Assembly: GCA_048615135.1 (NCBI GenBank)
Contig: JBMCMJ010000001.1
Location: 1 to 35,422 of the forward strand
Origin: Pseudomonadota bacterium
Lineage (GTDB): Bacteria > Pseudomonadota > Alphaproteobacteria > Geminicoccales > Geminicoccaceae
Reading direction: 5' to 3'
Length of the DNA stretch: 35,422 nucleotides
Below the pieces are notes generated by a model. The model ran no database searches, had not been told where the DNA came from, and saw only the letters and a program-made list of their open reading frames with translations. This document shows positions 4,079 to 6,918 of the stretch, one piece after another. Made by a program: the position numbers and the translations under genes. Positions within the stretch are counted from its first letter, which is position 1; each line of letters opens with the position of its first letter.

Positions 4079-4360
4079 TCAGCCGCCCTCGGCTTCACCC
4101 TCCGCCTCGGCCTCGCCTTCTCCCTCCGCTTCGGCCTCGGCCTCACCCTCGGCTTCCGCTTCGGCTTCTCCTTCGGCCTCGGCCTCACCCTCGGCTTCGG
4201 CTTCCGCCTGGGCCAACACGATGGTCTCGTCCGCATTAGCGGCCATCGCCGCCGGAACCGGGTTCGCCGCGACCGCCGCCACCATGAAGGGGGCGGAGTA
4301 AAGCAGGCCGCGCGACACCGATGCCAGCAACGAACGCCGCCGCTGCTCCAACTCGGACAT
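4079..4360 (-). CDS. Small (93 aa) twin-arginine-signal-like protein with a C-terminal strictly alternating (Ala/Gly)-Glu repeat tail (copy 1)
   Basis: Start at 4360 preceded by GGGAGGA. Sequence: MSELEQRRRSLLASVSRGLLYSAPFMVAAVAANPVPAAMA/ANADETIVLAQ + (A/G-E)x20 + GG. RRxLLA, a hydrophobic region and AMA give a Tat/Sec-type signal. The leader is conserved with 16535..16783 despite many synonymous codon differences. Confidence 0.75.
   Translation of the reverse strand: MSELEQRRRSLLASVSRGLLYSAPFMVAAVAANPVPAAMAANADETIVLAQAEAEAEGEAEAEGEAEAEAEGEAEAEAEGEGEAEAEGEAEGG
4082..4207 (-). repeat. Coding low-complexity repeat GAR-GCN/GGN (units GEAEAE / GEAEAEAE)
   Basis: The plus strand reads gcctcggcttc-type 6-nt periodic repeats. 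Translation on the minus strand is AEAEAEGEAEAEGEAEAEAEGEAEAEAEGEGEAEAEGEAEGG. Confidence 0.9.
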
Positions 4361-4436
4361 GATGGTCCTCCCTCGTGTCGTGGATCGACACCCCACACTA
4401 AGCGGAGCCCCGGTCCGAGGTAACCTCGAGCCCGCT

Positions 4437-4495
4437 CACGATCGCGTCAGTCCGGGGCATGGTCCCGTGCCGGCTTTGGGCCCTGCACCTATGCT
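4437..4495. promoter_or_regulatory. Conserved two-box module in the divergent intergenic region (CACGATCGCGTCA, 37 nt, ACCTATGCT)
   Basis: The 13-mer (4437-4449) and 9-mer (4487-4495) recur with identical 37-nt spacing at 16864-16876 and 16914-16922, upstream of the paralogous small gene. The intervening sequence is not conserved. Confidence 0.4.
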
Positions 4496-4536
4496 GTGTC
4501 CGTGCATGACGGCCCGAGGCCCGAGGGGAGAGCTCC

Positions 4537-6918
4537 ATGACCGAGGCACCAACGACCGCCAAGCGGCGCTACTGGCTCGGCGGCAACCGCCACGACGCCC
4601 AGGACCGCTTCTTCCGCGAAGCCCTCGATCCCGCACTCTGGGAGCCGGGCGACGCGACGGCATGGGAGGCCTGCTGGTACACCGGCATGCCGAAGGCCGA
4701 GGCATTCGAGGCGCTCGACGGCCGGAAGTGGGCGAACCACATCCCCGGCAACAACGCCCTCACGGTGAAGAGCCGGCTGGCCGCCACCCTGGCCGCCACC
4801 CGCGATCGGTTGCTGGCCGACGAAGGGCCGGACGGTGAAGGGCCGCAGCGCATGGGCTTCTTTCCCGAAACCTTCGCCATGCCCCGGCACTATCACGCCT
4901 TCCAGGCGGCGGCCCTGGCCGAGCCGGAGGCGCGGTGGATCCTCAAGCCCAAGAACGCCTCCAAGGGCCGCGACATCCGGCTGGTCGAGGATCCGGCGAC
5001 CGTGCCGACCGGTGATCGCTGGATGGTGCAGCGCTATCTGCACGAACCGCACACCATTCGCGGGCACAAATACGTGCTGCGGCTCTACGTCCTGATCACG
5101 TCGGTCGAGCCGCTACGCGTCTATCTCTACCACGAGGGCTTCGCCAAGCTCGCCTCCGAGCCCTACGACCTGAACGACCCCTCGAACGTGTTCAGCCACC
5201 TGACCAACCCCGACATCAACGAGACCAACACGGCGGTCGCCTCGCCCGTGGTGTTCATCCCGTTCCGCGACTATCGCGCCTGGCTGCGCGACCAGGGCCA
5301 CGACGATGCGGCGCTGTTCGAGCGGGTCCACGATCTCGTGACGCTCACCGCGATCGCCGCCCGCGAGCCGCTCCGCCAACGCCTCGCCGAGGTCCAAGCC
5401 GACACGAGCGGCTGCTACGAACTGCTCGGCATCGACTGCCTGATCGACGCGCGGCTGAAGCCTTGGATCATGGAGTGCAACCTGAACCCGTCGCTCGACG
5501 TCTGTGCCGCACCCGAGGATGGCGGCGAGGTCGAGTTCGCCATCAAGCGCCAGCTCGTGCACGACCTCGTGGCGATGCTCGGATTGAACCAACCGCAGCC
5601 GGCGCATCCCGGCCTGGAGGGTGAGGCCCGGCTCGTCGCCGAGGCGGCGGCGGAGCTGGCCCATGCCGGCGGCTGGCAGCGGCTCTTGCCACACCCCGAA
5701 CCGGAGCGCCACCTGCCGTTCTTCACGGCCCCCCGGCTCGCCGACGTCGTCCTCGCCGATGCCGTCGCCGGGCGGCGGGTGCATCTGCCGACCTTTTGCC
5801 GGCACCGCGCGGCCGAGATCGTCGAGCCCGACCACCTGGCGCTCTACGCCGAGGACGAGGGCGTGCTCTATCACCCGAACCCGACCGCGACGTGGCTCTG
5901 GCTGCACGCGACGGCCGGGCTCGATCCCGACGATCTCGCCGAGCGGCTGGCGGCCGAACGGGGTGCCGGCGACGCCGCCACCCGCCGGGCGGTGCGCGCC
6001 GAGGTCTGGGCGCAATTGGCCGACTGGGCTGCCGCCGGCCTGATTCGGCAGACGCGCGGAACGGAGGTGCCGGCGCACGCGGCTGCACCTCGCCCGGCTC
6101 CGATCGAGACGACGCTGCACGTGGGCCTGGGCGATGCGACGGTCAGTCTGGGTCTGCGAAGCGCGCCCGTCGTCGCGCGTCTCGATGGCCTCTGGGCGCG
6201 CGCGTCCGTTGGCGCGGAGCCGGTGACGCACCTGGAGGTGATCGAGACCCGCCGCGGCTACGGCCTCGTCCAGGCCGGGCGGTCGATCGCCGACGACTTG
6301 GCGTTGGCGGAGGTGGCGCCGGCCATCGTCGCGGCCCTTCTGTCGACGGCAGCCCCCCACGGCACCCTCACCGGCGCGGTCCTCTGCCCGCCCTCCGCAA
6401 GCACGGGAATTCTCGTTGCCCCCGGCCCCGTCGAGGCGAGCGACGCTCCGGCGTTCGCCCTGGCCAGAGCCCTGAAGGCGGAACTTTCGGGCGGGCTCCG
6501 CCTGGACGCATTGCCGACCGACCCTTGCCGGCCCCTGGGGCTGCCCGCTCGGGTGCCGCTCGGTCACGCCGGGGTGCGTCACCGTCACCGTTGGCCCGAT
6601 GGCCGAGAGGCGGGGCTCGTGCCGACGCGGCCGGCGCCTGCGCTGCCCATCGCTGCGGTGCTCGTGCCGACGACGGACCTCGCGGCCGACGACGCTTCGC
6701 TCGTCCCGCTCTCACCGGCGCGCACCCTTGCGGCCCTCTTGCCCGGCTTGCGCGGGGCCGAGGGAGGCCGGCCGAGTGCCGCCGACGTCAGCCGGCTCCA
6801 CGCTTGGCTGGAGAGCCGGCCGGGCTTCGCCGTGCCCGCGGACCGGCCCGCGGCCGTGGCGGCGGCGCTCCACCTCTGGCTGCGTCGGGAGCCGACCGGG
6901 GAGAAGCTCGCCGGCTGA
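4537..6918 (+). CDS. Tubulin-tyrosine-ligase-like (TTL/TTLL family ATP-grasp) enzyme fused to a PqqD-like peptide-recognition segment and a P-loop-less HprK-like C-terminal segment
   Basis: ATG 4537 preceded by GGGGAGAG. Ordered TTL hallmarks: [109 protein letters not shown]. The C-terminal half is described under findings. Confidence 0.8.
   Translation: [793 protein letters not shown]

Follow-up and report, generated by a model that had tools for sequence, protein, structure and literature searches.

Do free-living bacteria possess a TTLL (tubulin tyrosine ligase-like) ligase, together with a genetically encoded acidic acceptor of its own? The question is raised by a 35,422-nucleotide stretch of DNA (the window) from a member of the alphaproteobacterial family Geminicoccaceae (assembly GCA_048615135.1, contig JBMCMJ010000001.1, positions 1 to 35,422). 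In it, a gene for a 793-residue protein is divergently paired with a gene for a small protein whose C-terminal part is a run of Ala or Gly alternating with Glu, and an earlier note, made from the sequence alone, had proposed that the two form a peptide-tail ligation system. TTL (tubulin tyrosine ligase) and TTLL enzymes ligate Tyr, Glu or Gly to the alpha- or gamma-carboxylates of the Glu-rich tails of tubulins. We find that the large protein is a true TTL/TTLL-family ATP-grasp ligase by profile, fold and catalytic residues, and that the protein with the acidic repeat accompanies it as a conserved partner in the genome. The family identity and the pairing are solid; which reaction is carried out, when it takes place with respect to export and what role it plays, we infer. 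The whole looks like an undescribed bacterial modification of acidic repeats before export.

A TTLL-type ligase fused to a RiPP recognition element

The TTL motifs that the earlier note had listed are all present in the open reading frame (ORF) of the enzyme, and the family assignment drawn from them is borne out by Pfam TTL (PF03133), which matches residues 66-322 with 181.6 bits against a cutoff of 20.1 (E 2.7e-53). A profile built from 28 family members and searched against the PDB matched TTLL6 (E 3e-60, the strongest of five listed) and TTLL7 (E 6e-54), then TTLL11 (E 2e-26), the glycylase TTLL3 (E 9e-17) and TTL (E 1e-13), the closest solved relatives being the polyglutamylases TTLL6 and TTLL7. 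The fold predicted for the enzyme alone agrees: the AlphaFold2 (AF2) model (mean pLDDT 88.9) is that of a TTLL protein according to Foldseek, with E 4e-27 and TM(target) 0.77-0.82 against TTLL6 at ~24% structural identity. The HMMER alignment with TTLL6 extends past the core to enzyme residue ~397, a GGF-R-h-P...Y..FF motif being common to both. Ten residues (K137, Q165, Y167, K178, R182, K204, D300, E313, N315 and K337) do not vary among 28 homologues and line up with the TTLL6 and TTLL7 motifs; the positions predicted to bind ATP, Mg2+ and the substrate carboxylate are thus conserved in the family. No match to the RimK family was obtained, as Pfam gave only TTL, ATPgrasp_YheCD and PqqD on the enzyme, and NCBIfam has no model either for the enzyme or for the small repeat proteins described below.

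Residues ~415-505, which the earlier note had passed over, form a recognition element of the kind found in pathways for ribosomally synthesised and post-translationally modified peptides (RiPP recognition element, RRE). Pfam PqqD reaches E 2e-4 and 22.0 bits on the window enzyme (gathering threshold 23.4). For many homologues the precomputed Pfam annotation includes the same family (PF05402), some of these homologues being named "PqqD family peptide modification chaperone", and the 28-member profile also matched the lasso peptide B1 proteins TbiB1 and TfuB1 in the PDB search. In a separate AF2 model of the C-terminal half of the enzyme (pLDDT 86.9), the element matches TfuB1 (6jx3_B) and TbiB1 (5v1u) in Foldseek with TM(target) 0.83-0.86 and a root-mean-square deviation of 1.4-2.9 Å. 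Both RREs were solved with leaders bound, and the leaders recognised by lasso B1 proteins carry YxxPxL (PMC6784204). Such an element would offer a concrete mechanism by which the enzyme could recognise its partner.

The last domain has a remote similarity to ATP-dependent phosphoenolpyruvate carboxykinases (PEPCK), its best Foldseek matches (E 6e-5, TM 0.43/0.34), a fold class to which the HPr kinases (HprK) also belong. A Walker A motif (GxxxxGK[ST]) is absent from it in all 28 homologues and it has no Pfam match. We considered an active HprK-like kinase and rejected it, there being no P-loop and no Pfam or NCBIfam match, and the domain is probably non-catalytic. When the RRE and the C-terminal half were searched together against 1.84 billion representatives, only 53 proteins were found; as nearly all of them are ~800 residues long and match at ~400-800, this module is private to the present architecture. 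Positively charged domains were also considered as a binding surface for the acidic tail, and the net charges of the enzyme domains, negative or neutral, were uninformative.

More than 438 homologues of ~800 residues with the same architecture were found in the protein collection. Their hosts include Halomonas and its relatives, Marinobacter, Alkalilimnicola, Aquisalimonas, Ectothiorhodospiraceae, Natronospira, Robiginitomaculum, Parvularculaceae, Pararhodobacter and Geminicoccaceae, among others, and the record titles of many of the loci refer to saline, soda-lake or marine samples. Database names given to family members are "amylase", "TTLL5" or "PqqD family...". We take the first, carried by many members in NCBI and UniRef, to be a misannotation; the window also encodes a GH15 glucoamylase/trehalase-like protein (12349..14442, + strand), which is unrelated to that label.

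A conserved partner made of a leader and an acidic repeat

The small gene is as the earlier note had described it: 93 residues, 20 Glu in the last 42, a strong ribosome-binding site and a distance of 176 nucleotides from the enzyme gene. Its product reads MSELEQRRRSLLASVSRGLLYSAPFMVAAVAANPVPAAMAANADETIVLAQ, followed by (A/G-E)x20 and a final GG, the 20 dipeptides at residues 52-91 being uninterrupted. The ORF list also offers a GTG start at 4396, giving a version of 105 residues; we prefer the ATG at 4360 because it matches the N-termini of the homologues. The repeat is encoded by a GC-rich hexanucleotide repeat (period 6, ~21 copies), and the ORFs that overlap it between 3589 and 4398 in other frames or on the other strand (PSAS-rich on +, Arg/Pro-rich on + and -) we take to be shadows of that repeat, not genes.

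To what extent does the pair stay together? We fetched 80 genomic loci around homologous TTL genes and applied a hidden Markov model of the leader within 6 kb of the enzyme gene. A protein with the leader and an (A/G-E)n repeat (hereafter XE protein) was found in 75 of the 80, Marinobacter and Robiginitomaculum being among the genera concerned, so that the co-occurrence about which the earlier note had asked holds well beyond the window. The pairing is retained in alpha- and gammaproteobacterial lineages as the other neighbours change. In the loci inspected the XE ORF is either upstream of the TTL gene and divergent from it, or a short way downstream: the order is TTL, small protein, DinB_2, cytochrome in Marinobacter and Halomonas, and in Robiginitomaculum-type loci the divergent partner is itself an XE-cytochrome fusion. 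Three of the five loci in which no XE ORF was found reach the end of the contig within ~1 kb of the TTL gene (upstream in L003, downstream in L036 and L079; numbers with the prefix L are those of our 80 loci and further ones). A second copy in the window (16535..16795, - strand) is 65% identical to the first over the 60 residues of a BLASTP alignment in which the leader is included. Recurrence of leader and repeat in the 75 loci and in this second copy argues that the repeat is neither a chance run nor a wrong-frame artefact. Searched against a set of 5.8 billion proteins, the leader profile found only 11 small proteins.

The order TTL, DoxX, short XE protein defines a second subtype (L083:6880-10189; L084:9526-10186), enzyme and XE protein thus staying together in this arrangement too; in the genome of Vreelandella zhuhanensis, the DoxX-XE pair and the TTL gene are not linked. 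In the window, the second XE gene is immediately followed by a gene for a YeeE/YedE-type sulfur transporter (Sulf_transp, 15165..16340, - strand), with which it probably forms one operon (15165..16795).

The partner family was defined by 107 distinct leader-bearing ORFs. After a short polar N-terminus and a basic position, the leader follows the pattern R-x-x-LL-x-x-LSRG-x-x-Y-x-x-P-x-L/M, more broadly LL-x-x-(L/V)-(S/A)-(R/K)-G-x-x-Y-x-x-P-x-(L/M), and then passes into an uncharged stretch rich in Ala, Gly and Val (median 23 residues) that usually ends in A-x-A. M1, L11 and P24 are invariant in the alignment, and Y-x-x-P-x-[LMIVF] is present in 80 of the 107. The repeat begins after a short hydrophobic patch downstream of the leader, and X is almost always Gly (869) or Ala (786), any other residue occurring at most 16 times. 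Lys is found in the repeat region of some lineages only, the window repeat being made of Ala, Gly and Glu alone.

The family comes in two forms. Seventy-two members are small (median 98.5 residues), with variable C-termini (commonly EAEG, also AEGG, EAGN, GDGY and HGHG), while the other 35 run on into a CxxCH cytochrome c domain of the SoxA/TsdA type (median 227 residues). If gene fusions are read by the "Rosetta stone" logic, those XE proteins that stand alone probably function together with the SoxA-like cytochrome. As c-type cytochromes mature in the periplasm and are preceded here by the very same leader, the hydrophobic leader must serve as an export signal or anchor, and the repeat in the 35 fusions must be periplasmic. 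In agreement with export, a lipobox-like VAAGC ends the leader of the second window copy and also that of L002; in the 93-residue protein a cleavage site is predicted after A40.

The earlier note had likened the leader to a signal of the twin-arginine translocation (Tat) pathway. Export is well supported; the case for the Tat route is weak. The RRRSLL of the window protein is indeed in register with the Tat consensus and is followed by an Ala-rich h-region and A-M-A. Among the 107 leaders, however, 34 have RR, 44 have KR, RK or KK, and 27 have a single R. In the family alignment, conservation is limited to the first of the basic positions; RQ, RK, RH, RT and KR are common at the twin-Arg position even in close relatives such as L002, and close alphaproteobacterial relatives carry RH or RT. 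Cytochrome c precursors normally use the Sec pathway. Given these counts and the cytochrome fusions, a conserved Tat route is doubtful, and we set the Tat signal aside, as unproven, as a feature of the family. The gene that directly follows the TTL gene (6937/7060..7584, + strand) encodes a member of a YHS domain-containing (seleno)protein family (NF041384, E 8e-41) whose N-terminus is a textbook twin-arginine sequence, LTRRGALGLA, unlike the leader of the XE protein.

Residues that bear on the acceptor and the donor

Across all TTLLs, the position of TTLL6 Q180 is Gln in alpha-elongases and Arg in initiases, which form isopeptide bonds, and the position of H362 is Ile in TTLL4; the donor glutamate of TTLL6 is held by R241, K283 and K377, of which K283 and K377, the lysines gripping its gamma-carboxylate, are invariant in glutamylases and replaced by hydrophobic or polar residues in glycylases (Mahalingan et al., bioRxiv 10.1101/2020.06.07.139295). 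We mapped these positions onto the bacterial family by HMMER alignment to wild-type and mutant TTLL6, counting over the 28 homologues. At the two positions that distinguish elongases from initiases, Q180 corresponds to Arg in 20 homologues and Lys in 8 (K143 in the window protein), and H362 to Leu in all 28 (L316). The acceptor site therefore looks like that of a branch initiase, which fits the internal position of the repeats. Among the donor-binding positions, R241 is Lys in all 28 (K204), K377 is Lys in all 28 (K337), and K283 aligns with Phe in all 28 (F240), in a gapped and poorly conserved stretch of the alignment. The donor site would thus be partly glutamylase-like; glutamate is the most likely donor.

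The earlier note had left open whether the tail is branched on Glu side chains or extended at the C-terminus. Side-chain branching is now favoured, and C-terminal extension is not, because the repeat is internal in the 35 cytochrome fusions and the enzymes carry the initiase signature.

A probable leader-guided modification and its alternatives

Taken together, these data make it reasonably probable that the two genes encode a leader-guided, ATP-dependent two-component system that ligates an amino acid, probably Glu, onto the Glu side chains of the repeat before export. As the closest structural relatives of the RRE bind YxxPxL leaders, and the partners share the same spacing of Tyr, Pro and Leu or Met, the RRE of the cytoplasmic enzyme is proposed to bind the conserved leader where it overlaps the start of the export signal. 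The TTLL ATP-grasp domain would then activate the gamma-carboxylates of the repeat Glu residues with ATP, and a free amino acid, most likely glutamate, would be joined at many sites as isopeptide branches. Since the leader motif and the first part of the hydrophobic core overlap, an RRE bound there could hold back export until modification is complete. The modified protein would then be exported and its signal removed or lipidated, leaving a very anionic periplasmic peptide or, in taxa with haem-fused partners, an anionic tether on a SoxA/TsdA-like cytochrome c.

Several observations weigh against this scheme. The Phe aligned with TTLL6 K283 is invariant, albeit in an uncertain stretch of the alignment, and for that reason the donor may not be Glu, or may be bound in another manner. 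The Pfam score of the RRE in the window enzyme falls slightly under the gathering threshold. Two Pararhodobacter loci (L023 and L047), with several kb of flanking sequence, have the enzyme and no XE gene within 6 kb, and one Vreelandella genome has an XE gene that is unlinked to its TTL gene. Lastly, it is mechanistically awkward to export a polypeptide with many branches, above all when it is a cytochrome c precursor, which would normally use Sec.

The invariant Phe is also the argument for an alternative in which the partnership is the same and the chemistry is not, the ligase placing Gly, Ala, Asp or another amine on the Glu side chains; hydrophobic or polar residues at the donor-lysine positions are what glycylases have. 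This we regard as unlikely, because the family profile scores far better against glutamylases (1e-54 to 1e-60) than against the glycylase TTLL3 or TTL, the K377 equivalent is an invariant Lys, and the Phe itself lies in the poorly aligned stretch. A departure in regiochemistry, with residues added to the alpha-carboxyl end of the small protein, would have RimK and TTL as precedents and could draw on the position of the acidic repeat near the C-terminus of the small proteins, commonly ...EAEG; TTLL11 is described as able to initiate on a C-terminal carboxylate (PMC11574253). Yet the repeat precedes a cytochrome c domain of ~100 residues in 35 of the 107 partners, and the conserved target is for this reason not a free C-terminus; the C-termini of the partners are themselves variable, the active site has the Arg/Lys and Leu pattern of initiases and not the Gln and His of alpha-elongases, and Pfam gives no match to the RimK family. 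An extension of this sort is accordingly the least credible of the readings that we weighed.

It is also conceivable, though we find it quite improbable, that the XE proteins are not substrates at all. They would then be acidic periplasmic proteins or tethers of a sulfur/redox cluster, regulators or decoys, and the ligase would have another target or a small-molecule product. The neighbourhoods are rich in sulfur and redox functions (SoxA-like cytochrome c, rhodanese, Sulf_transp, DoxX, DinB_2, AhpD-like), the XE repeat ends up in a compartment other than that of the ATP-dependent enzyme, and acidic Ala/Glu-rich periplasmic extensions of cytochromes exist without a known ligase, as in Paracoccus cytochrome c1. 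Against this stand the persistence of the pair in alpha- and gammaproteobacteria while other neighbours change, the presence in the enzyme of an RRE of a leader-binding type with a lasso-like YxxP motif in the leaders of the partners, and the fact that TTLL enzymes target just such Glu tails interspersed with Gly and Ala.

Modification of the repeat side chains before export remains the reading that we prefer, and a more elaborate version of it may be offered tentatively, as a possibility that we hold with clearly less than even confidence. True TTLL polyglutamylation would occur in free-living Proteobacteria, an RRE-guided initiase branching Glu on exported (Gly/Ala-Glu)n repeats, with the RRE acting as a signal-peptide checkpoint and the product as a polyanionic tether for cytochrome docking or for cation or proton buffering in saline-alkaline habitats.

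Relation to known systems

The bacterial enzyme shares with the glutamylases TTLL4, 5, 6 and 7 the Pfam family, the fold including its extended region, the catalytic residues and the branch-initiase signature, and its presumed acceptor is, like the C-terminal tails of tubulin, a disordered poly-Glu interspersed with Gly and Ala. It differs from them in being bacterial, with neither tubulin nor an established role in microtubule binding, in its fusion to an RRE and a PEPCK-like domain, in the lack of conservation of K283, and in having an exported repeat protein or cytochrome as its partner. RimK, which acts on the ribosomal protein S6 (RpsF), is likewise a bacterial ligase of the ATP-grasp type, and it attaches Glu to the acidic end of a protein. 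It belongs, however, to another ATP-grasp family and lengthens a cytoplasmic ribosomal protein at its C-terminal alpha-carboxylate without RRE or leader, whereas the repeats are internal in the cytochrome fusions. TTL domains have been noted in bacteria before: 19 bacterial TTLs were counted by 2010 in a paper that describes the Legionella protein Llo2200 as eukaryote-like and discusses it in connection with host microtubules (PMC2824747), and a bacterial origin of the TTL ATP-grasp has been asserted (PMC3495828). The Legionella proteins share with the present family that they are bacterial and carry the Pfam TTL domain; the genes of the present family lie on the chromosomes of free-living Proteobacteria (halophilic, alkaliphilic and marine), and a partner of their own is encoded with them.

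With RRE-dependent RiPP pathways the system has in common a winged-helix RRE of the PqqD type, structurally close to those of TbiB1 and TfuB1, and an adjacent small precursor with a conserved Y-x-x-P-x-L/M leader and a variable repeat "core". Here, however, the catalytic partner is a TTLL ligase, which we found for no RiPP class in the searchable literature, the leader has the features of an export signal, and some of the "precursors" are full cytochromes, so that proteins are modified here no less than peptide natural products are made. Graspetide (microviridin-type) enzymes also use an ATP-grasp fold to activate side-chain carboxylates of a ribosomal peptide, but they are of another ATP-grasp subfamily and make ester or amide links to Ser, Thr or Lys within the same molecule, and the core of the window protein, consisting only of Ala, Gly and Glu, has no such nucleophile. 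A last parallel is one of logic. The chaperones of Tat signal peptides (redox enzyme maturation proteins such as TorD and DmsD) are cytoplasmic and bind the export signal so that modification precedes export; the RRE, as proposed here, would similarly bind the signal until modification is done, although the folds are unrelated and the twin arginine is not conserved in the XE family.

No description of a TTLL-RRE fusion, of the (A/G-E)n partner family or of its fusion to cytochromes was found in the searchable literature. If the more elaborate version of the proposal is correct, these bacteria would have a prokaryotic counterpart, and possibly an ancestor, of the eukaryotic writers of the tubulin code. 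The ancestral function of TTLL enzymes would become directly testable in a bacterial clade with a genetically encoded, tubulin-tail-like acceptor, and the preference for poly-Glu tails spaced by Gly or Ala would prove independent of tubulin. TTLL ligases would join the enzymes guided by an RRE, as a new RiPP-like class, in a rare case of a recognition leader overlapping an export signal. In halophilic and alkaliphilic bacteria, periplasmic SoxA/TsdA-like cytochromes may then carry a modification that has so far gone unexplored. On the practical side, eukaryotic TTL is already in use for protein labelling, and a compact leader-directed glutamylase could serve as a tool for site-directed polyanionic tagging.

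Genomic neighbourhood and other features of the window

The features of the locus are collected in Table 1. A simple consensus scan of 3900..7100 for promoters and terminators found nothing; the strong hairpin listed in the table, absent from that scan, was recognised by folding (dG -34.2 kcal/mol, z -4.17). Rfam and tRNA scans of the window were both empty.

Table 1. Position and basis of the features of the TTLL-RRE locus in the window (aa, amino acids)
Feature	Position	Strand	Basis
SoxA/TsdA-like mono-haem cytochrome c (CxxCH)	2753..3214	+	Pfam SoxA-TsdA_cyt-c 1e-9
Hairpin with flanking A-tract and U-tract, resembling a bidirectional terminator; it follows both the small gene and 3236..3976	4021..4056		
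Partner gene, 93 aa (leader/signal and (A/G-E)20 tail)	4079..4360	-	sequence reading, family conservation
(A/G)-E x20 repeat (residues 52-91), proposed acceptor region	4088..4207	-	
Leader / export signal (residues 1-40): RRRSLL, SRGLLYSAPFM motif, Ala-rich hydrophobic stretch, A-M-A	4241..4360	-	
Divergent intergenic region, 176 nt, between start codons	4361..4536		no sigma-70 consensus match
Shine-Dalgarno GAGGGAGGA, 5 nt before ATG at 4360	4366..4374	-	read from sequence
Three-domain enzyme gene (TTLL-type ATP-grasp, RRE, PEPCK/HprK-like)	4537..6918	+	ORF, 793 aa
TTLL-type ATP-grasp domain including extended TTL region (residues 1-400)	4537..5736	+	Pfam, PDB profile, Foldseek
PqqD-like RRE (residues ~415-505; three strands and three helices), as modelled	5779..6051	+	Pfam, profile, Foldseek
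C-terminal alpha/beta domain (residues ~520-785), remote PEPCK/HprK-like fold, without P-loop	6094..6891	+	AF2, Foldseek
Second leader and (A/G-E)n gene, lipobox-like VAAGC, upstream of Sulf_transp gene	16535..16795	-	

The genes that recur near the TTL gene in the 80 loci encode a DinB_2-like protein (49 loci), a homologue of the window cytochrome (39, by tblastn), an extracytoplasmic function sigma factor (23), an AhpD/carboxymuconolactone decarboxylase-like protein (20), rhodanese (16), DoxX (12) and DUF302 (12). From these neighbours and from the saline, soda-lake and marine hosts we infer a periplasmic redox or sulfur-oxidation setting. One might speculate that the acidic, possibly hyper-acidified repeat tethers or docks the cytochrome electrostatically, or buffers cations or protons; analogies exist in Paracoccus cytochrome c1, with its acidic Ala/Glu-rich extension, and in the mitochondrial "hinge" protein. 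Two neighbours were dropped as candidates for a direct role: a Glu_synthase-domain protein as supplier of glutamate, present in only 6 of the 80 loci, and Peptidase_C92 as a reversing amidase, present in 16 loci (representative from Marinobacter), which we took as lineage synteny.

NCBIfam gives the SoxA-like cytochrome only a far sub-threshold SoxA match. This type of cytochrome (also L082:16027-16698) combines CxxCH with a conserved MVQxCM cysteine, and its haem may for this reason be ligated by His and Cys as in SoxA and TsdA. The DinB_2-like protein (~190 residues with conserved His motifs, e.g. L022:8803-9357), for which NCBIfam has no model, follows the small XE gene in 49 of the 80 loci (gammaproteobacterial, within L009-L080), is absent from the window and could be a further component of the system. 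Between the cytochrome c and XE genes, the window has a gene for a cyclic-nucleotide-binding protein whose N-terminal membrane region is POPDC-like (3236..3976, + strand), of which no homologue was found in the 80 related loci. The window also contains four AhpD/carboxymuconolactone decarboxylase-like paralogues (687..1337 and 7712..8305 on the + strand, 8318..8869 and 21779..22387 on the - strand), and it is the type of 687..1337 that lies near the TTL gene in the 20 loci counted above.

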